64,000 bases of DNA from Thermodesulfobacteriota bacterium (GTDB lineage: Bacteria > Desulfobacterota_D > UBA1144 > Nemesobacterales > Nemesobacteraceae), in contig OZ242322.1 in assembly GCA_965208155.1 (NCBI GenBank), positions 2,175,204 through 2,239,203 on the forward strand, given 5' to 3'. Of this stretch, positions 27,201 through 51,412 are shown piece by piece. Below the pieces are notes generated by a model. The model had not been told where the DNA came from. It saw only the letters and a program-made list of their open reading frames with translations, and made no database searches. Positions within the stretch are counted from its first letter, which is position 1. Each line of letters opens with the position of its first letter. The position numbers were made by a program, and so were the translations under genes.

Positions 27201-27286
27201 GTGGAGATACCGATTTGAAAAGGGTGGTTTTTTTCATTATATTCTAAGATTTAAATTTTCGTTTAGCTAAAAAGGAGAGGTGTTCA

Positions 27287-28531
27287 ATGACAGTCCCAAG
27301 CGGAGAAAAAATACAAATTGACGAGGGAAACAGAAAGCTTGTAATTCCCGACAACCCGATAATTCCCTTCATAGAAGGCGATGGGATAGGTCCCGACATC
27401 TGGCACGCGTCCCAGATAGTGTTTGACGCCGCGGTCGAGAAGGCTTACGAAGGGAAAAAGAAAATATCCTGGCTCGAGGTGCTGGCAGGAGAGAAAGCGT
27501 ATGATAAGACCGGCGAATGGCTTCCCGAGGAAACCACCGAAACGATAAAGGAATATATAGTCGCCATCAAGGGCCCGCTTACCACTCCGGTTGGAGGAGG
27601 AATAAGAAGCCTTAACGTTGCGCTCCGCCAGATACTTGATCTATACGCCTGCGTAAGGCCCGTAAGATGGATCAAGGGAACCCCCAACCCTCTTCTGGTT
27701 CCCGGCAAGCTCGACGTCGTGATATTCAGGGAGAACACCGAGGATGTGTACGCGGGAATCGAATGGGAGAGCGGCACGGAGGAAGCGACTGCCGTAAGGG
27801 AGTATCTCGTCGAAAATTACGGGGTGAACATCCGCGAGCTCAGCGGAATAGGAATAAAGCCCATAAGTCCTTTCGGAACCAAGAGGCTCGTTAGAAAGGC
27901 GATTGAATACGCAATGGAGTATAAAAGAAAGAGCGTCACCCTCGTTCACAAGGGCAACATAATGAAGTTTACCGAGGGTGCCTTCCGCGAATGGGGTTAC
28001 GAGCTTGCAAAAGAGGAGTTCCCGGAGATCACCATAACCGAGGATGAACTCTGGGACGATTACGGCGGCAAGCAGCCCGATGGCAAGATCGTCATAAAGG
28101 ACCGCATAGCCGACAGCATGTTCCAGCAGGTTCTCACGAGACCCAGTGAATACGACGTGATGGCCATGCCTAATCTAAACGGCGACTACATGTCAGATGC
28201 ATGCGCCGCGCAGGTAGGAGGTCTAGGAGTTGCCCCGGGCGGCAACATAGGCGATTACCTGGCGGTTTTCGAAGCCACTCACGGGACCGCTCCCAAGTAC
28301 ACCGGGCAGGACAAGGTAAACCCGGGTTCCGTGATACTCTCGGGAGTCATGATGTTCCAGTACCTGGGATGGCACGAGGCTGCGGAGCTTGTTTTCAGGG
28401 CGATGGAGGAGACTGTTTTGCAGAAGACGGTTACCTACGACCTCGAGAGACAGATGGATGGGGCGACCCTTCTTAAGTGTTCTGAGTACGGAGAGGCTAT
28501 CGTTAAGAACATGAGCAGGGTAATGGACTAA
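27287..28531 (+). CDS. icd: NADP-dependent isocitrate dehydrogenase
   Basis: 414 aa. Prokaryotic homodimeric IDH ([19 protein letters not shown]). Confidence 0.9.
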
Positions 28532-28573
28532 GGGGCGCGCGGCACAGCAAATCTTTTCAGAAGGAGTGGAATC

Positions 28574-29521
28574 TTGAAGAACGGCAGAGCGAAAATTTCT
28601 GTGATAGGTGCGGGAAACGTCGGCGCGTCGGCGGCGTTTCGGATTGCACAGCTTGAACTTGCCGACGTGGCTTTGATTGACATAGTGGAGGGAGTTCCCG
28701 AGGGAAAGGCGCTTGACCTTGCCCAGATGTGCCCGATTACAGGAAGCGACGTGAATCTCGTCGGTTCAACCAACTACGAAGACACGGCTGGCTCAGACGT
28801 GGTGATAATCACCTCGGGTATTCCGAGAAAGCCCGGGATGAGCCGTGACGACCTTATCTCGACGAACACCAAGGTTGTAAAGAGCGTTACGGAGCAGGTG
28901 GTCACTCATTCCCCGGACACAATACTCATCCTGGTAACCAATCCGCTTGACGCCATGGTTTACGTGGCGCACAGGGTAAGCGGCCTTTCAGACAACAAGG
29001 TGATGGGGATGGCAGGGGTGCTCGATTCCGCGCGATTCCGGGCGTTTATCGCGATGGAGCTCGGGGTATCGGTTGAGAACATAAACGCCTCGGTTCTCGG
29101 CGGACACGGAGACACGATGGTCCCGCTTCTAAGCAACACCACGATTGCGGGTGTTCCAATAGCGCAGCTTGTCCCCGCTGACAGGCTCGAAGCGATGGTC
29201 GACCGCACCAGGAAGGGAGGAGCGGAAATAGTAGCGCTTCTTAAGACCGGAAGCGCCTTTTACGCCCCCGCTGTAGCCGCGGTGGAGATGGCCGAGGCAA
29301 TCATAAAGGACAAGAAGAAGGTACTTCCCTGCTGCGTGTATGCGGACGGACATTACGGAGTGGAGGATACGTTCGTGGGTCTTCCCGTAAGGCTTGGCTC
29401 AGAAGGGGTTGAGGAGATAATAGGGGTTGAGATTTCCGATGAGGAGATGGATGCTCTGCACGTCTCGGCGGGCAAGGTGAAAGAGCTTTGCGAAGTAATT
29501 GACGGAATGGGAATCCTTTAG
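28574..29521 (+). CDS. mdh: Malate dehydrogenase (LDH-like MDH family)
   Basis: TTG start. GAGNVG Rossmann motif, and catalytic His in the LGGHGDTMVP context. Confidence 0.85.
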   Translation: MKNGRAKISVIGAGNVGASAAFRIAQLELADVALIDIVEGVPEGKALDLAQMCPITGSDVNLVGSTNYEDTAGSDVVIITSGIPRKPGMSRDDLISTNTKVVKSVTEQVVTHSPDTILILVTNPLDAMVYVAHRVSGLSDNKVMGMAGVLDSARFRAFIAMELGVSVENINASVLGGHGDTMVPLLSNTTIAGVPIAQLVPADRLEAMVDRTRKGGAEIVALLKTGSAFYAPAVAAVEMAEAIIKDKKKVLPCCVYADGHYGVEDTFVGLPVRLGSEGVEEIIGVEISDEEMDALHVSAGKVKELCEVIDGMGIL

Positions 29522-29604
29522 GGTTCCGTTTGCATTCCGCCCCCCGGCGCCGTTTATAATCTCGGACGGACGCTCCGGAAATATTTTTTGGAGGTTTCTG
29601 CAAT

Positions 29605-30336
29605 ATGGCTAACGGTACGGTGAGCAAAGCGCTCACTATGAGAAAGGATATGTGGTGGGTAGAGCCTCTTGTAACCGGGGTGGTGCTCGGGGCTTTTGGA
29701 ATCTACTCCACGTGGAGGGCTCTTTCGAACCAGTTTTTCTACACCGAGCCCTACCTCTCGCCTTTTTATTCCCCGCTTCTGCTCCTTGACTGGTGGCACT
29801 TTTCCCCGGCAATACTTATTCTCTGGGCGCCGCTTGGATTCCGAGCGACCTGCTATTACTACAGAAAAGCATACTACAGGGCGTATTTCTTCTCGCCTCC
29901 CGGCTGCGCGGTAAAACCGGTCGGCAAAAGGGGCTCCTACAAGGGTGAATCGAGTTTTCCGTTCATCCTGCAGAACATCCACAGGTTTTTTCTCTACGCC
30001 TCTATCGTCATTCTGCTGTTTTTGTGGATTGACTCGTACGAAGCCTTTTTCTTCCATGACGGGTTCGGCATCGGCGTCGGGACCCTGGTTCTTACCGCAA
30101 ACGCGTTTCTGCTTACAATGTATTCGTTTTCCTGCCACTCGTTTCGCCACCTGATGGGAGGGAATCTTGACGTGTTCTCAAAGTGTCCGACCCGCTTTCG
30201 TCTCTGGGGCGCCATAAGCGTCCAGAACGAAGTACATATGAAATGGGCGTGGACAAGCCTTGTCTTCGTGGCTCTAACCGATCTTTACGTGTTCTTGGTA
30301 GCGAACGGAACAATTACTGATCTGAGGTTGATATAA
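29605..30336 (+). CDS. sdhC: Succinate dehydrogenase/fumarate reductase cytochrome b subunit (single large 5-TM type)
   Basis: 243 aa, multiple TM helices with conserved His. Immediately upstream of sdhA/sdhB. Confidence 0.65.
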   Translation: MANGTVSKALTMRKDMWWVEPLVTGVVLGAFGIYSTWRALSNQFFYTEPYLSPFYSPLLLLDWWHFSPAILILWAPLGFRATCYYYRKAYYRAYFFSPPGCAVKPVGKRGSYKGESSFPFILQNIHRFFLYASIVILLFLWIDSYEAFFFHDGFGIGVGTLVLTANAFLLTMYSFSCHSFRHLMGGNLDVFSKCPTRFRLWGAISVQNEVHMKWAWTSLVFVALTDLYVFLVANGTITDLRLI

Positions 30337-30338
30337 AC

Positions 30339-32057
30339 GTGGAAAAATACGAAACACACACACATGACGTTATAGTTATCGGTGCCGGCGGGGCCGGTCT
30401 TCGGGCCGCCATCGAATCTTCAGCAAAGGGCGCCTCGACCGCACTTATATGCAAATCCCTGCTCGGCAAGGCACACACCGTGATGGCCGAGGGCGGAGTC
30501 GCTGCCGCCTTGGCAAACGTTGACACCAAGGACAACTGGGAAACCCACTTCAAGGACACGATGAAGGGCGGAAAAATGCTGAACAACTGGCAGATGGCCC
30601 TTTACCACGCAAAGGAAGCCCCCGAGAGGGTGCGCGAGCTTGAATACTGGGGAGCGCTTTTTGACAGAACAAAAGAGGGAAGAATAAACCAGAGGGCATT
30701 CGGCGGTCACACCTGGAAGAGGCTTGCACATGTGGGCGACCGGACCGGTCTTGAGATGATAAGGACCCTTCAGGAAAAGGGGATACACTCTGGAATAGAC
30801 GTCTACATGGAATGCACCATAACCCATCTCATAAAAGACGGAGACAGGGTGACGGGAGCCTTCGGCTACTGGAGAGAAAGCGGGAAGTTCGTTCTTTTTC
30901 GCGCAAACGCAATCATTCTCGCAACGGGCGGGGTAGGGAAAGCCTACAAGTACACTTCTAATTCCTGGGAATACACGGGCGACGGCCATTCGATGGCGTA
31001 TGAGGCAGGAGCTGAACTTATAGACATGGAATTCATACAGTTCCACCCCACGGGGATGGTCTGGCCTCCGAGCGTAAGGGGAATCCTTGTTACCGAGGCG
31101 GTGCGCGGAGAGGGAGGCATACTCACAAACAGCGAGGGCGAGCGCTTCATGGAGAAATACGATCCCGAGCGCATGGAGCTCTCAACCCGCGACGTGGTCG
31201 CAAGATCCATATACACCGAAGTGGAGCAGGGCCGCGGTTCTCCCCACGGCGGAGCGTTTCTCGACGTCTCTCACAGGGGAGCCGATTACGTAAAGCGAAA
31301 GCTTCCGAGCATGTACCACCAGTTCATGGAGTTTGCAGACATAGACATAACAAAAGGTCCGATGGAAGTATTCCCGACCACCCATTACGTCATGGGGGGA
31401 GTCAAGGTTGAAGGAGATACCTGCTCAAGCACCGTTCCGGGGCTTTTTGCCGCGGGCGAGGTCGCCGGAGGAATGCACGGCGCGAACCGTCTCGGCGGAA
31501 ACTCCCTCTCAGACCTTCTCGTTTTCGGAAAAAGGGCGGGAGAAGGAGCAGCGGCCTACGCAAGCGGGAAATCCCACTCATCCATACCCGCAGAGCTTGT
31601 TGAGGGATTCGCAAACGAGCTTCACGAGCCTTTTAACAACACACAGGGAGAGAACCCCTACACGATCCACCAGGATCTCCAGGACGTGATGCAGCTCTAC
31701 ATAGGGGTGTTCCGCACAGAAGAAAACATACAAACAGGCATAGACAAGATAGAGGTACTCAAGCAGAGGGCGAAAACGCTCAAGATAGAGGGCTCAGTGA
31801 TGTTTAACCCAGGCTGGCATCTCTGCAGGGATCTTAAGTCGATGCTGATCGTCTCGGAGGCGCTTGCGAGATGCGCGCTTGCGAGAAAGGAGAGCAGGGG
31901 AGCTCACAGCCGGGTCGATTACCCTGAGAGCGACGATGAGGTACTGGGCAAGCTCAATTCCATTGTCTCTTTTAAGGACGGGGCGATGGATGTCGCAACA
32001 CGGCCGATTGTGGAGATGCCCGAGGAGCTTTCGAAACTGTTTACGGAGGATAAGTGA
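30339..32057 (+). CDS. sdhA: Succinate dehydrogenase flavoprotein subunit
   Basis: FAD-binding GAGGAGLRAA. The covalent-FAD His region RSHTVMAEGG. Confidence 0.9.
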   Translation: MEKYETHTHDVIVIGAGGAGLRAAIESSAKGASTALICKSLLGKAHTVMAEGGVAAALANVDTKDNWETHFKDTMKGGKMLNNWQMALYHAKEAPERVRELEYWGALFDRTKEGRINQRAFGGHTWKRLAHVGDRTGLEMIRTLQEKGIHSGIDVYMECTITHLIKDGDRVTGAFGYWRESGKFVLFRANAIILATGGVGKAYKYTSNSWEYTGDGHSMAYEAGAELIDMEFIQFHPTGMVWPPSVRGILVTEAVRGEGGILTNSEGERFMEKYDPERMELSTRDVVARSIYTEVEQGRGSPHGGAFLDVSHRGADYVKRKLPSMYHQFMEFADIDITKGPMEVFPTTHYVMGGVKVEGDTCSSTVPGLFAAGEVAGGMHGANRLGGNSLSDLLVFGKRAGEGAAAYASGKSHSSIPAELVEGFANELHEPFNNTQGENPYTIHQDLQDVMQLYIGVFRTEENIQTGIDKIEVLKQRAKTLKIEGSVMFNPGWHLCRDLKSMLIVSEALARCALARKESRGAHSRVDYPESDDEVLGKLNSIVSFKDGAMDVATRPIVEMPEELSKLFTEDK

Positions 32058-32788
32058 TGTCGGTAGCCAAGCTAAGAGTTTTTCGCGGTGACGCGCAGGG
32101 TGGAGAGGAAAAGGAGTACGAGGTCCCGGTAGATGAGGGAATGGTTGTCCTCGACGCGCTTTTCTACATACAGGCAAACTACGACGGCGACCTGGCAATT
32201 AGATGGAACTGCAAGGCGGCAAAGTGCGGCTCCTGCAGCACCGAGATAAACGGAAAACCGAGTCTTGCATGCAAGACCCGGATGGACACTTTCGCAGAGG
32301 GCGAAACTATTACCGTTTACCCGATCAAGGCGTTTCCCGTGATAAAGGACCTTGTTACCGACGTCTCGTGGAACTACGAAGTAAGCAAGAAAATCCCTCC
32401 GTTTACCCCCGCAGAAGATACCGAGTGGATCATGTACCAGGAGGACGTTGAGAGAGGGCAGGAGTTTAGAAAATGCATAGAGTGCTTCATGTGCCAGAAC
32501 GTGTGCCACATACTTCGCGACCACAACAGAAAAGACGCGTTTGCCGGGCCCAGGTTCATGATAAAGATCGCCGAGCGGGAGATGCATCCCCTCGATGTCC
32601 TTGACAGGAGGGAGTTCGCGCGCGAGGAAGCGGGAGTCGGCTTCTGCAACATCACAAAGTGCTGCACCGAGGTATGCCCCGAGGACATACACATAACGGA
32701 TAACGGAATCATTCCGCTTAAGGAGAGGGTGGTTGACAAGTACTATGATCCGCTTTCCTGGCTTTTAAGGAAGATCAAGGGGAAATAG
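32054..32788 (+). CDS. sdhB: Succinate dehydrogenase iron-sulfur subunit
   Basis: 2Fe-2S (CKAAKCGSC) and 4Fe/3Fe cluster motifs (CIECFMCQNVC, CTKCCTEVCP). Confidence 0.9.
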   Translation: MMSVAKLRVFRGDAQGGEEKEYEVPVDEGMVVLDALFYIQANYDGDLAIRWNCKAAKCGSCSTEINGKPSLACKTRMDTFAEGETITVYPIKAFPVIKDLVTDVSWNYEVSKKIPPFTPAEDTEWIMYQEDVERGQEFRKCIECFMCQNVCHILRDHNRKDAFAGPRFMIKIAEREMHPLDVLDRREFAREEAGVGFCNITKCCTEVCPEDIHITDNGIIPLKERVVDKYYDPLSWLLRKIKGK

Positions 32789-32797
32789 GGGAGAGCA

Positions 32798-33964
32798 TTG
32801 AACGTACACGAATACCAGGCCAAAAAGCTTCTCTCTGATTCCGGGGTCAAGGTTCCGGGCGGACAGGTCGTTTTCAGTGCGGATGAGGTCTCGGAGGTAC
32901 TCGATACCCTTAACTCTGAAAAATACGTGGTAAAAGCCCAGATTCACGCCGGCGGCCGGGGCAAGGGAGGCGGAATAAAGGTAGTTGACAATTCCCACGA
33001 CGCTATGGCTGCCGCAGATGAGATAATCGGCATGAGCCTAGTTACCCACCAGACGGGCCCGGAGGGCAAGACCGTGGGAAGCGTTCTTATTGAGGAAGCT
33101 TCCAGTATAGAAAAGGAGTTCTACCTCGGCATGGTGATTGACCGCTCCCGGGAAAAAGTGGTCGTTATGGGAAGCCCCGAGGGCGGGGTTGAGATCGAGG
33201 AAGTGGCGGCCAAGTCTCCCGAGAAGATAATCAAGGAGCATGTTGATATCTCGCTTGGCGTTCAGCCTTATCAGTGCCGGAAAATCGCTTATTTCATGGG
33301 TCTTGAGGGTGGTGCCGTGAGGCAGGCTGTATCGTTTATTTCATCCCTTTACCGTGTGTTTATCGAAAAGGACTGTTCCCTCGCGGAGATAAACCCGCTT
33401 GTTCTAACTTCAGACGGTAACATAGTGGCTCTTGACGCGAAGATTAATTTTGATGATAACGCGCTTTTCCGCCACCGCGACATCGCAGGGTTAAGGGACA
33501 GGGACGAAGAGGATCCGCTTGAGCTTGAAGCAAGCGACGCGGGTATAAGTTTCGTTAAACTTGACGGAAATATAGGGTGTCTCGTTAACGGTGCGGGGCT
33601 TGCCATGGCTACCATGGATATTATAAAGCACCACGGCGGAGAACCCGCAAACTTCCTTGACGTCGGCGGAGGGGCTACCACGGAGCAGGTTACAAAGGCG
33701 TTTAAGATGATCCTTAGTGATGAGAACGTAAAGGCCATTTTCGTTAATATTTTCGGTGGTATAATGAAGTGCGACACCATCGCCGATGGTATCGTGGAAG
33801 CCGCAGACGAGGTCGGAATAAACGTTCCTTTAGTGGTCAGGCTTGAAGGAACCAACGTTGAAGCCGGAAGGGAGATTCTTTCAAACTCCGGTCTTGACAT
33901 CCAGACCGGGGCCGACATGAAAGAAGCCGCGTCCAAGGTAGTTGAAGCTGCCAAAGCTGCCTGA
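32798..33964 (+). CDS. sucC: Succinyl-CoA synthetase beta subunit (ADP-forming)
   Basis: TTG start. ATP-grasp N-terminus ([12 protein letters not shown]) and a ligase-CoA C-terminal domain. No sucD follows. Confidence 0.9.
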
Positions 33965-34190
33965 TTTCAGCGGGTTGCGATTTAACTTCTAGATTCTTTT
34001 CATTAAATTATGAGCGCGTAATCACCCGTTAGAGCGGCATCTTCTCTGGTTTTTGTGTTAATATATAATCTTGGGTGGGTTTTCCTTTATATGGCATGGT
34101 TTTATTGCCGTTTTTTGACCGGATTTGAAAGGGATACGAGATTTTTTAATTTACTAAAGAATTCCATCGATGTTATCTGAGAACTGAGAA

Positions 34191-35453
34191 GTGAAGATAT
34201 CAAAACTAAGACTTAAGAATATTAAATGTTTCAAAGACACTGAGATTTCGTTTGAGGGCGAAAAAGGCGGTGTTAAAGACTGGTCTCTTTTTGTGGGAGA
34301 TAACGGACAGGGAAAAACAACAATTCTTAGAAGTCTGGCCGCAGGGCTATGTGATAAGGAAGGGGCATCGGGTCTTTTATTGGAATTGTATGGAGAATTT
34401 CTAAGACGAGGTAAAAAGGAAGGGTCTATCGAGATTTGTTTAAGAGATGATGAAGGTGAGCAATATACTATTAAAACTTCTATAAGGGGCGATAACGAGT
34501 CTGTTTCTCAGGATGTCTTTCGGGGTGACCGTGTAGGTAAAAAAGGTACTAATGAGGTTAAAGATTTTAAGAGAGAAGAAATTTTCGCGGTAGCTTACGG
34601 TGCGGGTAGGTCTGTTACAGGTACAGAATCCTATGAAGAATATGCATTGGTCGATTCTGTGTATACGCTCTTTAATTATAAATATGCTCTGCAGAATGCG
34701 GAACTGGGAGCAAGCAGGGTTAAGCTTCATTCCGATGAAGAATGGGGAAAACTTAAAAACATTTTAAAAAGAGTTTTAATGTTTCGGGAAGACGATGAGA
34801 TTTCTCTGGAAAGAACAGGATTATATGTTGAAACTAGAAGAGGTAAAGAGTCTTTTAATACTTTAAGTGATGGGTATAAATCACTGACTTCTGTTATTTT
34901 AGATTTTCTAAGCTGGAATCTGATTTATAGAGAAGATGAAGATTTTGATTTAAGCAATCTTTCAGGAATTTTCATCATTGATGAGCTTGAACAGCACCTC
35001 CACCCAAAATGGCAACGGAGAATAGTAAAAATCCTTTCAGAGCAGTTTCCAAAGGTACAGTTCATATGCAGTACGCATACTCCTATTTGTGCTTTGGGGC
35101 TTAGCGACTTGGAGTGTGAATCTTGGCTTTTCAAAGCTGCTTACGTAAACGGGCATAGTGATATTGAGAAATTTGATCTTCGAGAAGATTTTAGGGGTTA
35201 CAGATCTGATCAGATATTGACTTCGGGCATTTTTGACCTTACAGACACGAGGAGCGTTTCCGTAGAAGATAAACTGGAAACTTATAGAAAGATATATCTC
35301 AAGGAAGAAAGCGAAAGAAGCGAGGAAGAAAAGCTGCAGTTTCATGCTATTGAAGACGAACTGAGAGATTTACCTATGTGGGACAACGAAAAAGAGAAGA
35401 AACAAAGGGAAGAGTTAATCAAATTACTTAAGAGCCAAAAAAAGAAATCCTAA
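34191..35453 (+). CDS. AAA_15/AAA_21-type ABC-like ATPase, Septu PtuA-like (copy 1)
   Basis: GTG start. N-terminal Walker A (FVGDNGQGKTTILRSL). C-terminal Walker B / D-loop / H-loop (IFIIDELEQHLHPKWQRRIV...ICSTHTP). Immediately followed by an HNH gene. Confidence 0.6.
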   Translation: MKISKLRLKNIKCFKDTEISFEGEKGGVKDWSLFVGDNGQGKTTILRSLAAGLCDKEGASGLLLELYGEFLRRGKKEGSIEICLRDDEGEQYTIKTSIRGDNESVSQDVFRGDRVGKKGTNEVKDFKREEIFAVAYGAGRSVTGTESYEEYALVDSVYTLFNYKYALQNAELGASRVKLHSDEEWGKLKNILKRVLMFREDDEISLERTGLYVETRRGKESFNTLSDGYKSLTSVILDFLSWNLIYREDEDFDLSNLSGIFIIDELEQHLHPKWQRRIVKILSEQFPKVQFICSTHTPICALGLSDLECESWLFKAAYVNGHSDIEKFDLREDFRGYRSDQILTSGIFDLTDTRSVSVEDKLETYRKIYLKEESERSEEEKLQFHAIEDELRDLPMWDNEKEKKQREELIKLLKSQKKKS

Positions 35454-35456
35454 ATA

Positions 35457-36200
35457 ATGATAAAGATTGAACGTGGAAGGCCCCCTAAAAACACCGCTAT
35501 AGACAAGAGAAGAGAAAGAGAGCTTCGGAAAATTAGGAAATTAGTAAAGTCTAGAGAATTAAAATCTAAGCATTTTGAAAATTTGTGGTCAGACCCAAAA
35601 GTTAAAGACTTCCTATACGAGTCTCAACATGGTAAATGCTGTTACTGTGAAAGAAAACGAGACAAAAGAGAGTCTGACGTAGAGCACTTTCGCCCCAAAG
35701 CTGAAGTTAAAGAAGCCGGAGAAGGCCATCAGGGTTACTGGTGGCTTGCCTATAGCTGGGAGAACTTACTTGTAGCTTGCAAAACGTGTAATCAAGAGTA
35801 CAAGAAATCAAAATTCCCACTAAAGAACAAACGGAAAAGAGCCTACACAGAAAATTGTGACCTTGGCGAGGAAGAACCATTTTTGGTCAACCCGCTAGAA
35901 GAAAAACCGGAATTGCTTATAGATTATGATCTTAGGGAAACTAGGCTTATGGCGAAAGCCGTTGGAAGGTGTGAACGAGGTGAGAGAACAGTCAATGAAC
36001 TGACAGGAATAAACGATAGAAAAGTGATGGAGAAAAGAGCAGACAAACTCAAGGATTATCGGGTGTGGGCATATTTAAAGAATAATGGGAGCGATGAATT
36101 AAAATCAGAGGCCGATGAACGTCTGCGGGAATACGTCTCTCCTTGCAGTGAATTTTCAGGATTTGCAAGATTCTATTTTCAGAAGGAAGGATGTCTTTAA
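35457..36200 (+). CDS. HNH endonuclease, Septu PtuB-like (copy 1)
   Basis: CCYCE...VEHFRPK...ACKTCN HNH core. Starts 3 nt after the ATPase stop. Confidence 0.65.
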   Translation: MIKIERGRPPKNTAIDKRRERELRKIRKLVKSRELKSKHFENLWSDPKVKDFLYESQHGKCCYCERKRDKRESDVEHFRPKAEVKEAGEGHQGYWWLAYSWENLLVACKTCNQEYKKSKFPLKNKRKRAYTENCDLGEEEPFLVNPLEEKPELLIDYDLRETRLMAKAVGRCERGERTVNELTGINDRKVMEKRADKLKDYRVWAYLKNNGSDELKSEADERLREYVSPCSEFSGFARFYFQKEGCL

Positions 36201-37354
36201 TGAAAGACTCCTTCCCGCTAGAACAGTCGGCCGAAACGCCTGCATTTATCTACAATTTAAGTGAAGTAAAAAAAAGGGCGAAACTTCTTTCCCAAATAAA
36301 AAACAAATCAAACTGCAAAATTCTTTATTCTGTAAAACCATTACCCTTGTACAGAGTCTTAGAGGAAATGGAATCCTTGGATGGTTTTTCTGTAAGTTCT
36401 TTTTTTGAAGCTGAATTAGCAAAAAAAGCCTGTAAAGACAAAAAAGAAATTCATTTCATCAGTCCTGGAATTAAGAGTGAACAATGGGAGGATATCTCAA
36501 CCGCTGTCAATTATTTAACCTTTAATTCCTTAGAGCAGTTGTCCTGTTTTGAAACTAGGCTCAAAAAGCAAAGCTACGGTATAAGAGTCAATCCGGAAAT
36601 CTCTTTTATTACAGATCCCAGATACAATCCCTGCCGTGAGTTTTCAAAGCTCGGTGTTCCCATTGCTCAGATTAAAAATAAGATTTCTGACGACCCGGAT
36701 TTTTTTAAAAAAATAGAGGGAATTCATTTTCACACAAACTTCGAAAGCAGAGATTTTTCTCATTTAACTGAGACATTTTCAAAGCTGAAGACCGAACTTG
36801 CGGACGAGCTTAAAAGGTTCAAGTGGATTAACTTGGGCGGCGGCTATCTCTTTGATGAATCGGAAAATCTATCCCTTTTTTATGAACTTATAGATGAACT
36901 TAACGATAATTACAATTTTGATGAAATTATTATCGAGCCTGGTACCTTCCTAGTTAGAGACAGCGGATATCTGGTTTCTTCTGTTATTGATCTTTTTCAG
37001 AGGGATGGAAAAAATGTTGCCGTTTTAGACACCACTGTGAATCACCTTCCGGAAGTCTTTGAATACCAATACGAACCTGATGTTCTAGGGGATGACTTCT
37101 CCAACAAGAATGAGTATATATTAGCCGGGAGCAGTTGTCTGGCAGGGGATGTTTTTGGTGTGTATCGTTTTGAGAACGAATTGGAACTGGGTTCAAAAGT
37201 GATCTTTGAGAAAGTGGGAAGTTATTCCCTAGTTAAGGCGCACACGTTTAATGGGATTAATCTTCCTGATGTTTATTGTCTTGAAGATGATGCTGGACTG
37301 AAAAGGGTGAAAAGCTTTACACTTGAACAATATGTGCACTATTACGGAGGATGA
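36191..37354 (+). CDS. Carboxynorspermidine/carboxyspermidine decarboxylase-like PLP enzyme (Orn/DAP/Arg decarboxylase fold)
   Basis: 387 aa. AFIYNL..., the conserved ILAGSSCLAGDVFGVYRFE and FNGINLPDVY blocks align with NspC. Overlaps the HNH stop by 10 nt. Confidence 0.65.
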   Translation: MSLMKDSFPLEQSAETPAFIYNLSEVKKRAKLLSQIKNKSNCKILYSVKPLPLYRVLEEMESLDGFSVSSFFEAELAKKACKDKKEIHFISPGIKSEQWEDISTAVNYLTFNSLEQLSCFETRLKKQSYGIRVNPEISFITDPRYNPCREFSKLGVPIAQIKNKISDDPDFFKKIEGIHFHTNFESRDFSHLTETFSKLKTELADELKRFKWINLGGGYLFDESENLSLFYELIDELNDNYNFDEIIIEPGTFLVRDSGYLVSSVIDLFQRDGKNVAVLDTTVNHLPEVFEYQYEPDVLGDDFSNKNEYILAGSSCLAGDVFGVYRFENELELGSKVIFEKVGSYSLVKAHTFNGINLPDVYCLEDDAGLKRVKSFTLEQYVHYYGG

Positions 37355-37357
37355 TTC

Positions 37358-38731
37358 ATGCGATTTTTAGAAAGAGAAATATCTTTTCCTAAAATTCAAG
37401 ACAATAGAGATTTGCTGTCATATATTGAAGAGCAAACGTCTTCTTGTTTGAGTGAAGAAGGCTTGCTACCTATAAGGATTGCTGTTACTGACAGCTCGGG
37501 CTCAGATTATAAGTGCGAAGTTGGTGCTTTGTGCACGGAAGACACAAGCAGCTTTGAGGAAGCGAAGCTAGTATTTGAGTTCAAGAAACGAAAGTTTGAA
37601 AACACCAAAAATTTTAATGTCGTTTTCTTGATTCCTACTGGAATTGGTTGTGAAATCGGGGGTCACGCTGGAGATGCCACCCCGGTTGCAAGACTTTTAT
37701 CTTCCAGTTGCGATAACCTCATCACTCATCCGAATGTTTTTAACGCTTCTGACCTCAACGAGATGCCCGAGAACAGTCTCTATGTTGAAGGGAGTACAAT
37801 TTGTCGTTTGATGATGGGAACTGTAGGTCTCCAACCCGTTAGGTCTAACAAAATTCTTGCCGTTATAGATAAAAATGAATATAAGATTTTTGAAAACGCT
37901 GCTGTTAATTCTATCAACGCTGCCAGGGCAGTCTTGGGAATAGAATGTTCCGATATAGTGAAATTAGACCCCTCAATAACTATGGAATCCGAATATTCGT
38001 CTTCCCAAAGAGCTGTCGGCACCATTGACGGAATCGATAACTTGTTCTCCATCTTGAAAAAGTACGAAGGAAGTTATGACGCAGTTGCCATCTCGTCGAT
38101 AATCAATGTCCCCGAGCATTATCACAAGGAGTATTTTCGTTGCAGGGGAGAGATGGTTAATCCTTGGGGAGGGGTAGAAGCCATGCTTACCCATGCTGTT
38201 TCTTACAAGCTCAACATTCCTTCGGCCCATTCCCCGATGTTTGAATCTCCTAAAGTTGCTCATCCAGACCCCGGAGTTGTTGAAGCCAGGATGTCAGCGG
38301 AAGCCGTCTCCACAACTTTTTTCCATTGCGTTTTAAAAGGACTTCATAAAAGTCCTAAAATTATTACCGACCCGGACATGTTTCATTATGACGATATTAT
38401 CTCGGCAAAAGACATTTCCTGCTTGGTTATTCCTGATGGCTGTCTGGGTCTTCCTACTCTTGCAGCTTTGGAACAGGGAACAAAAGTTGTTGCAGTAAAG
38501 GAAAACAAAAACCTGATGAAAAATGATCTCAACGAGCTTCCTTGGGATACCGGACAATTTATTCAAGTGGAAAACTATTTAGAGGCTGCCGGAGTTTTAA
38601 ACTCTATTAAAAATGGAATTGATCCTTCTTCGATAAGACGACCTTTTAAAACTTTAGATCCTTTTGGAACTTCAGATATTTCTCGTGATTCTGAGTATCA
38701 GAGGCCAGCTTTGAAACAGGTAAAAGGATAG
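37358..38731 (+). CDS. Hypothetical 457-aa protein, no recognisable family (glycine-rich VVFLIPTGIGCEIGGHAGDATP motif)
   Basis: Long uninterrupted ORF. RBS GGAGGA sits upstream. Starts 3 nt after the decarboxylase stop. Codon style matches the neighbouring island genes. Confidence 0.5.
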   Translation: MRFLEREISFPKIQDNRDLLSYIEEQTSSCLSEEGLLPIRIAVTDSSGSDYKCEVGALCTEDTSSFEEAKLVFEFKKRKFENTKNFNVVFLIPTGIGCEIGGHAGDATPVARLLSSSCDNLITHPNVFNASDLNEMPENSLYVEGSTICRLMMGTVGLQPVRSNKILAVIDKNEYKIFENAAVNSINAARAVLGIECSDIVKLDPSITMESEYSSSQRAVGTIDGIDNLFSILKKYEGSYDAVAISSIINVPEHYHKEYFRCRGEMVNPWGGVEAMLTHAVSYKLNIPSAHSPMFESPKVAHPDPGVVEARMSAEAVSTTFFHCVLKGLHKSPKIITDPDMFHYDDIISAKDISCLVIPDGCLGLPTLAALEQGTKVVAVKENKNLMKNDLNELPWDTGQFIQVENYLEAAGVLNSIKNGIDPSSIRRPFKTLDPFGTSDISRDSEYQRPALKQVKG

Positions 38732-38821
38732 GTTTCAGAGAGGTTACCACTCTTCATTTTATATTGAGTGTGCAGCTATCTGTTACAAAAGGTGTTACGT
38801 TTTAAGTTGAGAGATAAGAGA

Positions 38822-40123
38822 ATGCATATAACCAGTCTATATTTAGAAAATATAAAATGCTTTGAAAAGCTTACTTATAAATTCCAGGGTGATGGGGGAG
38901 CTTCGCTCGTCATTGCCGGGGATAACGGCGATGGTAAATCTACAATACTACGGAGCATTGCAATTTCTTTATGTGATCAGTGGTCTGCGGCAGGATTGCT
39001 AAGAGAACTGTCAGGAGAATTTATACGTGATAGATGTGACGAAGGAGTAATCAAACTCGGCTTAATATCTGGCAAGAAAAGAAAGAAAAGGTTCGAGATT
39101 GTTACACGTATAAGGTGGGATAGTAAAGAAACATATGAATACCCTTACAGGGAGATTAATCAGATCAAAACTAAGACTAGGGAGCCTGAAGAAATTGAAG
39201 ATTCCAACTTTGATTGGAAAGCGATATTTGCAACAGCTTATGGGTCTGGATTAAGAACTGTGGGAACACAAGATTTTCAGCACTACTTTACTGGCGATTC
39301 TATTTACTCTTTATTTAGGGACGATGTAACTTTGCAAAACCCCGAGTTGGCCATACGACGGATTTCCACTGGTGTTGTAGAAAAACCAACCGCAATCGAC
39401 TCTCAGGAAGAAATAGAGGCTTTTCAAAAAAATTTATTGGATTGGCTTGGTGAGATTTTGATACTTGATAACAAGTCTCTGGAAGTTCACGGAAATGGCA
39501 TTTTTGTTTGCACAAAAGGCAGTAAAACCAAAGTTCCCCTTGTAGCTACAGGCGACGGGTACAAAGCTCTAACGGCCTTGATTCTGGATATGCTCTCATG
39601 GTGGTTTCTCTACGCTTTCTATGGAGCAAAAACTGGAAGCAGAAATAAGGCGAAAATAACTTTGGATAGTCTTAAAATGATGAAAGGAGTTGTAATTATT
39701 GACGAAATAGAACAACATCTTCATCCGAAGTGGCAGAGCAAGATATTACCTTCCTTAGAAAAGAATTTTCCTCAAGTGCAATTTATTGTTGCTACCCATT
39801 CTCCATTAGTTGTGTCCTCCTCAGAAGATGATGTTTTAGTTATAGAAGATGGTCGGGCAAGAAAAGAGAAGTTATATGGCTGGCTTCCAGAAGACGTCTA
39901 TATACAGATGGGTAGAGAAGACGAAAGACCGCCCGAAATTGCAGAAAAAATATCTGAACTTGAGTTGCTGTATAGAGAAAAAATAAGTGGCACTATAAGC
40001 AAACAGGATGAAAAGAGATTCAATAGTATCTACGAACAACTTAAGGTTGAATTGCCTTCGCACGACCCAGTCCTGCAGACAATCAAATTTAATGTAATGC
40101 GTAGGTCTATACAAGATGATTGA
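38822..40123 (+). CDS. AAA_15/AAA_21-type ABC-like ATPase, Septu PtuA-like (copy 2)
   Basis: Walker A (IAGDNGDGKSTILRSI). C-terminal VVIIDEIEQHLHPKWQSKIL...VATHSPLVVS. Paralogous to the ATPase at 34191. Confidence 0.6.
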   Translation: MHITSLYLENIKCFEKLTYKFQGDGGASLVIAGDNGDGKSTILRSIAISLCDQWSAAGLLRELSGEFIRDRCDEGVIKLGLISGKKRKKRFEIVTRIRWDSKETYEYPYREINQIKTKTREPEEIEDSNFDWKAIFATAYGSGLRTVGTQDFQHYFTGDSIYSLFRDDVTLQNPELAIRRISTGVVEKPTAIDSQEEIEAFQKNLLDWLGEILILDNKSLEVHGNGIFVCTKGSKTKVPLVATGDGYKALTALILDMLSWWFLYAFYGAKTGSRNKAKITLDSLKMMKGVVIIDEIEQHLHPKWQSKILPSLEKNFPQVQFIVATHSPLVVSSSEDDVLVIEDGRARKEKLYGWLPEDVYIQMGREDERPPEIAEKISELELLYREKISGTISKQDEKRFNSIYEQLKVELPSHDPVLQTIKFNVMRRSIQDD

Positions 40124-40126
40124 ACC

Positions 40127-40780
40127 ATGAGATTGGTAAATAGAGGCGAGGAACCAGCTACCCTGAAACGAAATTCAAAAAAATGGACGGAAGAGTTGCT
40201 CGATGCTCATGAAAAAGGGGATCAGAACGCAATTGAAAAAGCAGAAAACAGATACAGAAAGCCCGAAATTCAAAAAGCTCTAAAAGATATGTACGGCGAT
40301 CTTTGTTGCTATTGCGAGGGAACCGTGAGTGCTAATAGCTTTGGGCATATCGAACACCGAAAGCCCAAGAGAGAGTTTCCAAAATATGCGTTCAATTGGG
40401 ATAATCTTCATTGGGTTTGTTGGAAATGTAACAATGCAAAAAGTGACAAATGGAATAGGGACAATCCAATTTTAGACCCCACTGCTGATACAGAAATAAT
40501 TCCGACTCATCTTAAACCTATACCTGGTCTTGAAACTATTAAGTTTGATTCTGAAACGGGCTCAGGAAAAACCACAATAGAGCATGCTGATTTGAACAGG
40601 TTAGATTTGGCAAAAGCAAGACGCAAAGTTTGTAATTATGCTTTGGCGTTAAAAAATACGCTTGAAGCAGGGGAAGAATTTTTGAGCGATATAAACATTG
40701 AGAACATTAAGAACCTGATTAATGAGATGAGAGTAGAAGAGTACGGCAGTTGTGTAAAAGAAATTCTTGAACAATCCTGA
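40127..40780 (+). CDS. HNH endonuclease, Septu PtuB-like (copy 2)
   Basis: CCYCEG...IEHRKPK...CWKCNN. Starts 3 nt after the ATPase stop. Confidence 0.65.
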   Translation: MRLVNRGEEPATLKRNSKKWTEELLDAHEKGDQNAIEKAENRYRKPEIQKALKDMYGDLCCYCEGTVSANSFGHIEHRKPKREFPKYAFNWDNLHWVCWKCNNAKSDKWNRDNPILDPTADTEIIPTHLKPIPGLETIKFDSETGSGKTTIEHADLNRLDLAKARRKVCNYALALKNTLEAGEEFLSDINIENIKNLINEMRVEEYGSCVKEILEQS

Positions 40781-40991
40781 TCAAAGGGATTCCAAAATCA
40801 TTGAGCATCTGTGTCAGCGGATCGTTAAAACCCTTCCAGGGATCAGCAAATCCTCTATGTCCTCCGAGCTCTAACTTGCCAGTGGTCTCTTGATTCTTTG
40901 GAGGGAGATGCTTGTCAAAAAGCTCCCTAAACAGATCTTTTGTTTCTTTTTGACCTTTCGGTTCAAAAGCCTTATTTTTTCTACCCATAGT

Positions 40992-41053
40992 GGCGTATCC
41001 TCCTATTGATTTATTTGGCTGAATTCAAATCAACCGGATACGCCGCTTTTTTT
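40992..41053 (+). terminator. Candidate intrinsic terminator / structured junction after the six-gene operon
   Basis: 9-bp inverted repeat ggcgtatcc ... ggatacgcc (with a nested tgaattca palindrome) followed by gcttttttt. Confidence 0.3.
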
Positions 41054-41088
41054 CAAGTTCTCCATACGCCAGTTTTAACTATATCTCT

Positions 41089-41547
41089 GTGGAAGGGGGC
41101 AAGAGGGTTATGTTCACCCGTACCACGGACCTTGTGCAGAGACTCCAGATGGCCCACAGAGAGCTTCGTATGGAGAGTATGCTTGAGCGACTCAACCGTT
41201 ATGACCTGCTGATTCTCGATGATCTTGCGTACGTACGCAAGGACAGAGACGAAACCAGGGTGCTGTTTGAGCTTATATCGAACCGTTATGAGAGCAGATC
41301 ACTGCTTATCACGGCGAATCAGCCCTTTGAAGAATGGAAAAACGTGTTTCCTGACGAAAATACGGCTGTGGCGGCAGTGGATCGCCTTGTACATCACTGC
41401 GTAATCCTTGAAATGAACGTGGAGAGCTACAGATTGCGTCATGCTATGGAGAAAAACAAGGAGGAGGTGAAGAAAAAACGGGGCAGACCCGCGAAATACG
41501 CTACCGAGAATAACTCGGAGGGTCTGACCTCGAAAACTGGAGATTGA
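41089..41547 (+). pseudogene. IS21-family IstB helper ATPase, C-terminal fragment (no Walker A)
   Basis: Aligns with the IstB C-terminal two-thirds (DLLILDDLAYV...LITANQPFEEW...DRLVHHCVILEMNVESYRL). The N-terminal ~110 aa are missing. Confidence 0.6.
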
Positions 41548-42611: not shown

Positions 42612-43268
42612 GTGGGGAGGGAATGCGCTGAGAGGGAGAGCAGGAAGCAGCGGCGTCTGGTACGCGACGCTTGCTTCAGACTCAGGGCCGATCTGGTAGA
42701 TATTGACTACGGACATTCCCGTAATCTGAGAAAGGCTCAGATAGCCGAGCTTGCCCATGGAGACTGGGTAGAGCGGGGTCGCAATCTTCTCATAACGGGT
42801 CCTTGCGGAAGCGGCAAGACATGGATAGCTTGCGCTCTGGGTCATAACGCGTGTCTGAAGAGGGATATCGGTTCGTTACTACAGGATCTCAAGACTGTTT
42901 CTGGTTCTCTCCCAGGCAAAGGTGGACGGAAGCTACAACAAGCTTCTCTCAAAACTGGCAAGAGTGAACTTCTTATCGTAGACGACTGGGGTCTTGAGGC
43001 TGTGACCACGGCCCAGAGATATGATCTGATGGAGATAATGGATGACCGTTACGGGGAGAGTTCTACTGTGGTGATAAGTCAGCTTCCGGTAAGCGAGTGG
43101 CATGGCATCATAGGGGACAACACTGTTGCCGACGCGATCCTTGACAGGATCGTTCACAACTCTCATCGTCTTGAGCTCGGTGGGGAGTCGATGAGGAAAA
43201 TCGTTGCGGAGAAGGAAGCGAAACAGGAGTTTGTAAAAGGAAAAGAAGAGAATAGAGATGATTGTTAG
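42612..43268 (+). pseudogene. IS21-family IstB helper ATPase, N-terminally truncated
   Basis: Walker A GPCGSGKT, Walker B LLIVDDWG, and a C-terminal DRIVHNSHRLELGGESMR. Only ~30 residues precede the DIDYGH(=DFDF) region. No istA nearby. Confidence 0.5.
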
Positions 43269-43874: not shown

Positions 43875-45121
43875 ATGCTTGAAGCAGATTGTACGCGACA
43901 CGTTGAATCGCGATTGAGAGAGGTCATTAAGGATTCTCCTGTCGTGTTGATTCAGGGCCCCCGCCAGTGCGGAAAAACTACCCTTGCCCGCATGGTGGCA
44001 GGACCGAGGGCTATCACTACATAAGCCTTGATGAAGAGGATGTTCGTGCCGCCGCCGAGGCGGATATTGCGGGATTTGTAAAGACTTTGCCCAAGCGCGT
44101 AATTCTGGATGAGGTACAGAAAGTGCCGGAGATATTCTCATCCATAAAGCTTGCGGTTGACCGCGACCGTGCTCCAGGGCGTTTTATACTGACAGGTTCG
44201 GTAAGCGTGCTGCATGTTCGCGGGATAACAGATTCTCTTGCCGGTCGCATGGATATAATCAGGTTGCATCCTTTTTCACAAAGTGAAATTGAGGGGAACA
44301 CGCCGGGTTTTCCGGAAGCTCTGTTCTCCTCGGAGTTTGATATATGGCAAAGTGGGAGAGATCTGTCGGAGATAATTGTTATGGATAAACTGGCTGCCGG
44401 CGGATACCCGGTTGCCCTTCAGCGCTCTGCGGAGAGGCGTGCCGACTGGTACAGAAAGTATATAGAGGTGCTCGTGGAGCATGATTCTCGTGACATTGCC
44501 GCAATACGTTCATCCGGGATTCTGTCACAGCTGCTTTCCCTTGCTGCCGCTCAGACCGCGAAGCTTCTTAACGTAACCGGTCTTTCCTCTTCTTTTAAAC
44601 TTAGCCGCAATACGATTCATGACTACCTTCTTCTTCTGGAAAAAATGTTTTTGCTTGAACGGCTGCCCGCGTGGCACTGCAATCACCTCAAGCGTCTGGT
44701 CAAGGCTCCTAAACTTCACGTTACGGATACGGGTGTCGCTTGCGCGCTTATGAGGATGAATAGCGCCGCACTCTCGGCGAACAGGCCTTTTTACGGCCAT
44801 CTTCTTGAGACCTGGGTGCTGCAGGAACTGCGTCGCCAGTTAAGCGGACACGCAGAGCCGCATATCTTCTCTCACTATCGGGAAAAGGATGGGGCGGAAG
44901 TCGATATCGTTATAGAACGCGGGGCAACAGCTCTTGCCGGGGTTGAAGTCAAGGCGTCGGCTACTGTGAGAGGTTCGGATTTTCGGGGATTGCGCAAACT
45001 CAGGGCTGCAGCGGGCGATCGTTTTTCCTGCGGAGTCGTGCTTTATAACGGAGAAAGAAGTCTGCGGTTTGGTGCGGGACTCTATGCGGTGCCTCTGCAG
45101 TCACTCTGGGCGACGGAATAA
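43875..45121 (+). pseudogene. DUF4143-type AAA ATPase, frameshifted
   Basis: The Walker A part (MLEADCTRHVESRLREVIKDSPVVLIQGPRQCGKTTLARMVAGPRAITT*) ends at a stop near 44023. The rest (from GYHYISLDEEDV...) continues in another frame to 45121. Confidence 0.6.
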
Positions 45122-51200: not shown

Positions 51201-51412
51201 CCGACCTTCTTGGCGAGCAAGTGCTCAGTCGCAAGGGCGATAACGCCGCCGGCCACGAGGGTTTTTCCGAGTCCAACCTCATCCGCTACGAGAAAACGAT
51301 CCGTAGTTTCAGGATCTGTATAGAAACGGCGAAACACATATTCGGCGGTCCGCCGCTGAAAGTCCTTAAGTCTTCCGAGGACAAGCTTCGTTTTATGTGA
51401 TTTTCCCGTCAC
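48206..51412 (-). CDS. SNF2-like superfamily-2 helicase (1068 aa)
   Basis: N-terminal motif I DEVGLGKT, DExx box LILDEFQ, and C-terminal motifs V/VI (ASTSIGQEGLDFHTWCHSVIHWNLPSNPVDLEQREGRIQR). Confidence 0.7.
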   Translation of the reverse strand: MTGKSHKTKLVLGRLKDFQRRTAEYVFRRFYTDPETTDRFLVADEVGLGKTLVAGGVIALATEHLLAKKVGRIDIVYVCSNMSIASQNLRRLNVSGEQKFERSTRLSLLPIDISDIRKNRVNYVSLTPGTSFDPRSRDGKVKERALIHFLLKGRLNISPAGLRRLLQCRVSDENWWWWTRKWKPESLDKDIRDEFVKNVSEDREFYEKIKNFCARSRRRILWGDPERLWLVSELRFRLAEMSIDMLEPDLIILDEFQRFRSLLDPKNQEDSQNHKNRLAHKLFQYENVKTLLLSATPYKMLSLDHERDDDHYPDFLKTLGFLSHSESVDPQTVIDGIKRDIQAFRQSLYSLGSDDDTAISNARDVLQSKLIRVMCRTERVGMTPSRDAMFSEFPQEVALEPRDIHGAVLADRVASSVGARDIIEYWKSSPYLINFLRRYEFRQKLEAQCENAPEELIEALRADADHLLHKDDIQSYREVSPSNPRMRNLFDLTINRGLWKILWLPPSMPYSRPGGSYADIPDITKSLVFSAWNVVPDAIASLCSYEAERKMLSGLRKPITHDQLYDELRPLLRYSRGSENRPTGMPVLILMYPSPALAMLIDPLIIAVSHQKDKLISAAELLNSAAELIRPSLNQLLVEAPASGPEDQRWYWAAPALLDGKRFPDIKHWLLDDEKGWFSIAKEDSSDRVEGLREHLELFRQTMDHAIDSPLGRPPADLLQVLSLMAVAAPSVCALRALRRQSPSLNLDSSELLCGAVRISEGFRTLFNLPESIALLRGNRRDESYWRLSLQHCLEGNIQSLLDEQVHCLVESLGVIDEPETERVETIGDSIGSSLSIRTSRLQLDEVIVRPESQKIELKDYNTRCRFALRFGELKDDRGAVVRADAVRDAFNSPFRPFVLASTSIGQEGLDFHTWCHSVIHWNLPSNPVDLEQREGRIQRYKGHAVRKNIAKAYGLSALRGKWNRQGDPWSCLFELAKKDRPTGASDLIPYWLYELKEGASIERHVPILPYSKEEPHFRRLKRMLAVYRLVFGQPRQEDLLEYLTNRISENHQCQVLNTWRISLEPPS

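Follow-up and report, generated by a model that had tools for sequence, protein, structure and literature searches.

The gene under study lies in a 64,000-nucleotide stretch of a Thermodesulfobacteriota genome, referred to here as the window, and codes for a 457-residue protein of the family DUF3326. It is the last of four consecutive genes, preceded by those of a PtuA-like ATPase, a PtuB-like HNH nuclease and a pyridoxal 5'-phosphate (PLP)-dependent decarboxylase resembling carboxynorspermidine decarboxylase (CANSDC, NspC). The decarboxylase start (36191) overlaps the ptuB stop (36200) by 10 nt, and PtuA, PtuB, decarboxylase and DUF3326 are therefore regarded as one operon, a point missed in an earlier note on this DNA that had been drawn up from the letters alone. 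Several features which that note reported were confirmed. The reading frame opens with ATG and carries the glycine-rich motif VVFLIPTGIGCEIGGHAGDATP at residues 88 to 109, and it is coupled to the decarboxylase gene, whose TGA (37352-37354) is directly preceded by GGAGGA and followed by the ATG 3 nt past the stop. The adjacent PtuA and PtuB by which PADLOC and DefenseFinder recognise Septu are the neighbours of the DUF3326 protein, not the protein itself. All the cassettes described below preserve without change the Walker A sequence GDNGxGKT and the DExEQHLHP motif of PtuA, as well as the HNH motif CxxC...H...N...CxxCN of PtuB.

The four genes form a horizontally mobile unit inside a defence island of low GC content (0.37-0.41 over 34-41 kb, compared with 0.51-0.56 in the flanks). 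An unrelated genome (L009) has in common with the window only the DNA from 34173 to 38717, which covers precisely the four-gene unit and is 76% identical. The genomes closest to the window are metagenome-assembled genomes of Candidatus Dadabacteria, and in one of these relatives (L010, 91.6% identical) the common DNA extends through the stop codon of the DUF3326 gene. The slot 3' of that gene is occupied in L010 by Kiwa KwaA/KwaB (L010 9490-10881) instead of the second Septu pair of the window, and hence represents a variable defence hot-spot. This second pair (PADLOC, PtuA2 E=6e-53 and PtuB2 E=5e-46; PtuA2 37% identical to PtuA1) is separate and outside the conserved unit, and no remnant of a second decarboxylase-DUF3326 module was found after PtuB2 by tblastn. 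A Rfam search over 33800-41300 revealed neither a retron ncRNA nor a riboswitch. Terminator-like sites were absent from 33800-41200 (7.4 kb, both strands; 0 found, 6.5 +/- 2.1 expected from shuffles) and the promoter scan of the island showed no enrichment, so that these scans mark no boundary of the operon.

Table 1. Features of the window, beginning with the DUF3326 gene and its operon (positions are those of the 64,000-nucleotide stretch).
Feature	Position	Strand	Basis
DUF3326-family protein, long form, 457 aa	37358..38731	+	PF11805; AF2 model
GGAGGA, Shine-Dalgarno-like, within the end of the decarboxylase gene, 6 nt 5' of the ATG	37346..37351	+	sequence
N-terminal extension, residues 1-87, beta-alpha-beta-beta-alpha domain, outside the Pfam model	37358..37618	+	
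Glycine-rich motif, residues 88-109; family signature PTGIGxxIGGHAGD	37619..37684	+	
PtuA-like ABC/SMC-type ATPase, first gene of the unit	34191..35453	+	Pfam AAA_15/AAA_21; PADLOC PtuA E=1.3e-59
PtuB-like HNH nuclease	35457..36200	+	PADLOC PtuB E=1.5e-51
CANSDC (NspC)-like PLP decarboxylase, alanine-racemase fold	36191..37354	+	TIGR01047; PDB relatives
Low-GC island, flanked by sucC and IS21 remnants	34001..41000		GC
Second Septu pair: PtuA2 38768 (probable start 38822)-40123, PtuB2 40127-40780	38768..40780	+	PADLOC
TCA-cycle genes acn, icd, mdh, sdhA, sdhB, sucC	24534-33964		
IstB fragments	41089-41547, 42612-43268		
PDC-S01 candidate	43967-45121		
rpoH, dnaK	from 45327		
ZacABC	48206-54415	minus	

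The earlier note could assign the protein to no family, a statement that no longer holds. Pfam DUF3326 (PF11805) matches residues 88-426 over profile positions 2-336 of 337, with 319.7 bits for a cut-off of 25 (E=2.6e-95), and the window protein is a new member of this known, uncharacterised family. Of the candidates scored, over 6,500 are homologous to it at E<=1e-3, and an exhaustive search gave 1,173 clusters at 50% identity, from bacteria and viral contigs; given these thousands of homologs, the frame is a real gene and not a chance one. The profile search, structure prediction with a search for structural neighbours, and conservation mapping that the note had proposed gave mixed answers, and its interpretation was supported in part. 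A confident family was indeed found, but it is an uncharacterised one and not a well-characterised enzyme. Likewise, the AlphaFold (AF2) model is confident (pLDDT 93.4), but solved structures resemble it only in generic Rossmann/flavodoxin-like subdomains, and Foldseek retrieved nothing from PDB or BFVD at E<1e-3. NCBIfam and PADLOC scans with the protein gave no match, a PDB search with the single sequence found no relative, and one with an 88-sequence DUF3326 profile returned a single hit, a spurious one of 20 bits to ribosomal protein L23. The reported lack of nucleotide-binding signatures stood, the pattern search revealing neither Walker A (G....GK[ST]) nor GxGxxG/A and the Pfam scan no ATP-grasp domain. 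Assignments of DUF3326 as arginase/ureohydrolase-like, as a PLP enzyme of fold-type II or V, or as deoxyhypusine-synthase-like were rejected, none having structural or profile support.

Conservation mapping revealed many invariant polar residues among the homologs. The conserved blocks of the family are PTGIGxxIGGHAGD, CDxLxTHPNxxNxxDxNE, YVEGS, NPWGGVEAxLTH, AHxP, KGLH, PDGCxG and YLEAAG, and the signature motifs (PTGIGxxIGGHAGD, HPN, YVEGS, NPWGGVE, AHxP, KGLH and YLEAAG) are all present in the window protein. In the alignment of 88 sequences, P93, T94, G95, G101, G102, G105 and D106 of the glycine motif are invariant or at least 90% conserved. The invariant polar residues of the conserved blocks are D106, D119, H124, N126, E144, N164, N184, E274, H291, E315 and Y407. 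This pattern suits an enzyme active site and not a simple dinucleotide-binding fold. The N-terminal extension is missing from short-form and most viral homologs; among the long forms its residues R40 and C53 are invariant, and K327 is almost so. With regard to the literature on DUF3326/PF11805, only a preprint on pavettamine, considered below, and a mention in a cyanobacterial gene neighbourhood were found.

The main result lies in the gene context, beginning with the pairing of DUF3326 with a decarboxylase. Among the 80 best bacterial loci, taken from one genome per species, 76 have such a gene adjacent to DUF3326: 51 carry a CANSDC-like PLP decarboxylase, and 25 harbour at the same position an AdoMet_dc (PF02675)-like gene of about 125-170 aa, of the pyruvoyl type and hereafter called AdoMetDC-like, after S-adenosylmethionine (SAM) decarboxylase. 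The remaining four have neither, and at least one of them is truncated. The window decarboxylase scores 269.6 bits with the TIGR01047 nspC model, under its equivalog cut-off of 409; among PDB entries it comes closest to carboxynorspermidine decarboxylases (E=1e-59), and its PLP Lys, GGG, EPG and CLAGD motifs align with those of the solved enzymes. In the AdoMetDC-like partners, Ser, His and Cys are invariant, and on the strength of such residues the decarboxylase partners look catalytically intact.

The pair is also encoded by viruses. In a survey of 70 uncultivated viral contigs from IMG/VR, 62 have an AdoMetDC-like partner, directly upstream of DUF3326 (51 contigs), or a phosphatidylserine-decarboxylase-like one (PS_Dcarbxylase, PF02666) abutting it (11 contigs); three others show an ornithine-cyclodeaminase/mu-crystallin-like neighbour and five no such partner of any type. 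The gaps between partner and DUF3326 are mostly shorter than 45 nt, or the genes overlap. At least some of these contigs are genuine phages, since in L144 terminase/portal genes stand on one side of the pair and the major head protein gene on the other, and in L125 its neighbours are DNA polymerase, ribonucleotide reductase and ligase genes. Searches by tblastn of GenBank phages, with the window protein and with a viral homolog, and of PLSDB plasmids gave no match, and the viral occurrences are thus confined to uncultivated IMG/VR contigs. It follows from the bacterial and viral surveys that three unrelated decarboxylase families fill one slot beside DUF3326. We found no description in the literature of the pairing rule, of this three-way displacement or of the phage copies. 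In other respects, a gene of the mu-crystallin family, which belongs to the NAD(P)-dependent imine reductases, directly precedes a long-form DUF3326 gene in L094 (3939-4865), L150 (4859-5788) and L159 (3911-4840), and such neighbours may be a clue to imine chemistry.

Linkage of the pair to PtuA and PtuB is recurrent. Look-ups of the exact proteins revealed the order PtuA-PtuB-decarboxylase-DUF3326 in six unrelated flanking contexts, and in the bacterial survey PtuA-PtuB adjoins the pair in 16 of the 80 genomes, upstream in 15 and downstream in one, with a PLP decarboxylase in six cases and an AdoMetDC-like partner in ten. These loci come from Dadabacteria/Thermodesulfobacteriota, Bdellovibrionales, Neomarinimicrobiota, Phycisphaerae, Terriglobia, Actinomycetes, Zixibacteria, Nitrospirota, Nitrospinaceae, Puniceicoccaceae and Alphaproteobacteria, and in most of the cassettes the ptuB and decarboxylase genes overlap or abut. 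In a neighbour-joining tree of DUF3326 proteins, all ten members of the clade of the window protein are PtuAB-linked, and the AdoMetDC-type cassettes fall in at least three other places. Two PtuAB lineages (PtuA1-like and PtuA2-like) are used by the cassettes. The divergence of PtuA follows that of DUF3326 across the 16 cassettes (Mantel r=0.74, p=2e-4). In the reverse direction, a PtuA profile was run over metagenomes; among the closest PtuA relatives with enough downstream DNA, five out of six carry the module, and none of the remote relatives does. PADLOC has no family for the CANSDC-like decarboxylase or for DUF3326, neither being a recognised Septu component. No paper linking PtuA or PtuB with DUF3326 or the decarboxylase was found, and literature searches on Septu and polyamines, or on anti-phage defence and polyamines, gave no such link either. 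The fusion of Septu with a decarboxylase-DUF3326 module is therefore a variant for which we found no earlier description. Of note, ptuA or ptuB is split into two open reading frames in several cassettes (L009 6083-6843, and the PtuA region of L011, L012, L014 and L037), which may reflect a frameshift, an assembly error or pseudogenisation of the nuclease arm, the decarboxylase and DUF3326 being intact there.

With regard to the chemistry of the pair, the sole experimental data on any DUF3326 protein concern PavB, which, together with PavA, a Rieske domain joined to an alanine-racemase-fold decarboxylase, is needed for the formation of N-(5-aminopentyl)cadaverine as well as of pavettamine, a polyamine toxin that has this compound as its backbone (bioRxiv 10.64898/2026.06.12.731819). 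In eight of the 80 bacterial loci, a homolog of glutathionylspermidine synthetase (GSP_synth) lies just upstream of the pair, and homospermidine synthase (HSS) clusters with glutathionylspermidine synthetase in like manner (PMC9992855). Further, genes of triamine synthases have as neighbours AdoMetDC homologs that have been neofunctionalised to decarboxylate ornithine or arginine (PMC10407285). On these grounds, DUF3326 probably carries out amine coupling in a polyamine-type synthase made up of two enzymes, and its pairing with decarboxylases, PavB and the GSP_synth neighbours together suggest the synthesis of a triamine or of its carboxylated precursor. For the window we favour a reductive condensation like that of carboxyspermidine dehydrogenase (CASDH), yielding a carboxylated intermediate which the partner would then decarboxylate, because this partner is clearly CANSDC-like. 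An HSS-like condensation of a diamine made by the decarboxylase, and a 3-amino-3-carboxypropyl or aminopropyl transfer dependent on SAM or decarboxylated SAM (dcSAM), are the alternatives. As a separate observation, the pair is found within a yjf-like cluster (GSP_synth, PspA, DUF350, DUF1190, DUF2491, DUF2170 and a K+ channel) in L007 (2089-7305) and seven other loci, which suggests that the amine product may be conjugated by the glutathionylspermidine-synthetase homolog in an envelope-stress context.

Comparison with known systems underlines what is particular to the locus. The pav cluster pavABC, whose PavB belongs to the same Pfam family as the window protein, has been reported only in Burkholderia s.l. 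In pavABC, decarboxylase and Rieske oxygenase form one fused protein, and a JmjC hydroxylase (PavC, a JmjC cupin) comes next; neither oxygenase nor hydroxylase occurs at the window locus, where the neighbours are PtuA, PtuB and a stand-alone decarboxylase; the pav cluster, in turn, lacks PtuAB. The pathway of CASDH or its carboxynorspermidine counterpart (CANSDH) with CASDC/NspC resembles the window in its CANSDC-family enzyme, which lies upstream of DUF3326 here with its active-site motifs intact. The CASDH gene usually neighbours its decarboxylase gene, and DUF3326 holds the position that is usually that of CASDH; however, CASDH is saccharopine-dehydrogenase-like, and DUF3326 is unrelated to it in sequence and in fold. 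The window decarboxylase also differs from NspC proper by its sub-cut-off score, and its counterparts beside DUF3326 are swappable for AdoMetDC-like or phosphatidylserine-decarboxylase-like enzymes. The SpeDC/SpeDA systems with HSS or SpeY, including phage-encoded ones, share with DUF3326 loci a small AdoMetDC-fold decarboxylase beside a triamine-forming enzyme (in the case of DUF3326, a putative one), in bacteria and phages, and the clustering with glutathionylspermidine-synthetase homologs. They differ in having HSS or SpeY instead of DUF3326 as partner, the window decarboxylase moreover being of the PLP CANSDC type, and PMC9992855 and PMC10407285 contain no mention of DUF3326. Finally, Septu and retron-Septu (type I-A retrons, e.g. 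Ec78) have in common with the window a PtuA ATPase and a PtuB HNH protein with intact motifs and, for retron-Septu, their placement in one operon with an extra two-component module. That module is a reverse transcriptase with its ncRNA, whereas in the window it consists of two metabolic enzymes encoded downstream, in an island without Rfam match.

The surroundings of the unit deserve brief description. The island follows sucC, where sucD does not appear, and the cassette likewise stands after sucC in all close Dadabacteria relatives (L001 and L010-L012); tblastn with an E. coli SucD query found no sucD anywhere in the window. At the other edge, the two IstB pieces are truncated fragments of the IS21 helper ATPase without IstA, i.e. 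decayed insertion sequences. The PDC-S01 candidate between these remnants and rpoH is an AAA_14/DUF4143 ATPase (PADLOC E=6e-138), and a three-gene ZacABC operon lies about 10 kb from the four-gene cassette (PADLOC: ZacA E=6e-129, Pfam DUF6361; ZacB E=1e-170; ZacC E=0, DEAD/Helicase_C).

Taking these elements together, we tentatively favour, while giving it slightly less than an even chance, the joint reading that DUF3326 and the decarboxylase form an obligate polyamine-type pair serving a Septu-like operon. Long-form DUF3326 and the decarboxylase of the preceding gene would be obligate partners and would most likely make a polyamine-type amine, DUF3326 performing the C-N bond-forming step that falls to CASDH or HSS in known pathways. 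At the window locus, DUF3326 would make the carboxylated precursor and the CANSDC-like enzyme would then decarboxylate it. In this lineage, the pair, as the distal half of a mobile four-gene operon in a defence island, would not be housekeeping. Its product might serve PtuAB as a small-molecule regulator that restrains the nuclease or signals infection, or it might be a co-effector; in retron-Septu, to which we draw the analogy, PtuAB is under the control of the accessory module. Family membership, the pairing with decarboxylases, the replacement of one decarboxylase family by another, the occurrence in phages, the mobility of the four genes together and the repeated linkage to PtuAB are observations, whereas polyamine synthesis, the sequence of its two reactions and a function in defence are what we infer. 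That phages carry this module too may point to a metabolite over which host and virus compete. Taken furthest, decarboxylase and DUF3326 might make a polyamine-like molecule gating the Septu ATPase/HNH nuclease, with phages carrying the module to manipulate that molecule; such a new anti-phage class, in which DUF3326 would be an unrecognised enzyme of the polyamine pathway and stand at the centre of a metabolite-based arms race between hosts and viruses, seems unlikely at present.

Several observations weigh against the favoured reading. Distant DUF3326 genes of the short form (about 33% identity) can occur without a partner, so that the pairing rule describes a large subfamily and not the whole Pfam family, and the 80-genome sample is biased toward sequences resembling the window protein. 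DUF3326 has neither the NAD(P) GxGxxG motif nor the Sacchrp_dh homology that mark CASDH and bacterial HSS, and its fold is similar to none of CASDH, HSS and deoxyhypusine synthase. Transfer of the role of PavB is weak, because PavB is too distant to have been retrieved by tblastn of PLSDB plasmids, and for the window protein and its close relatives a polyamine role is likewise what we infer. AdoMetDC homologs of 117-122 aa from phages act weakly as pyruvoyl ornithine decarboxylases (kcat/Km ~200 M-1 s-1; PMC9992855), which, if the proteins assayed are of the type that partners DUF3326, would fit an HSS-like role better than one with a carboxylated intermediate; their low ornithine activity could be promiscuity. 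The remaining two points concern the link with Septu. The pair occurs without PtuAB in 64 of the 80 genomes, often beside GSP_synth, PspA or ion-channel genes, so that linkage elsewhere could reflect co-location in defence islands. In AdoMetDC-type cassettes alone, the co-divergence of PtuA and DUF3326 drops to r=0.12, which implies shuffling and not one co-evolving unit; the overall pattern indicates vertical co-inheritance in the clade of the window and repeated re-assembly elsewhere.

These last two points equally favour the main rival, namely that the pair is an ordinary polyamine cassette, housekeeping or auxiliary metabolic, which hitch-hikes beside Septu in mobile islands without interacting with PtuAB. 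The phages that carry the pair without PtuAB, and the differing PtuAB lineages that adjoin it, also speak for this explanation, which we hold to be possible, if doubtful. It accounts poorly for a fixed gene order and a ptuB-decarboxylase overlap that recur in many phyla with two unrelated decarboxylases, for a mobile unit of exactly four genes in which the pair has the low GC of the island, for a whole DUF3326 clade linked to PtuAB, and for the module beside most of the nearest PtuA relatives. Two further proposals are less likely. DUF3326 might act on a nucleotide or nucleic acid, as a SAM- or dcSAM-dependent 3-amino-3-carboxypropyl or aminopropyl transferase or a SLOG-like enzyme processing nucleotides, and make with the decarboxylase a modification or signal marking self or controlling PtuAB; this seems improbable, given that no significant structural or profile match to transferase or SLOG families was obtained, that the PavB data point to a C5-N-C5 polyamine, which is not derivable from SAM, and that the pair is widespread as a stand-alone module without any nuclease. 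Alternatively, the pair might be an effector that on infection destroys an essential amino acid or a SAM-type metabolite and so aborts phage growth. Decarboxylases do consume amino acids or SAM irreversibly, and the locus lies within a defence island, but a pair that is common without defence neighbours and carried by phages is hard to square with toxicity, and apart from the small N-terminal domain nothing in the protein looks like a sensor or regulatory domain, which makes this proposal very improbable.

DUF3326 is a large family without an assigned reaction, for which the three-decarboxylase rule and PavB point to a specific, testable role as a new type of triamine or carboxy-polyamine synthase. 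If this is true, it would supply a missing polyamine enzyme for abundant uncultured lineages, such as Dehalococcoidia, SAR202-type bacteria, Marinimicrobia and Dadabacteria, and for their phages. Septu is common, and the control of PtuAB is only partly understood; if the favoured reading is correct, the cassette would provide the first link that we know of between polyamine-type metabolism and nuclease-based defence, and a rationale for the copies of the decarboxylase-DUF3326 module encoded by phages.

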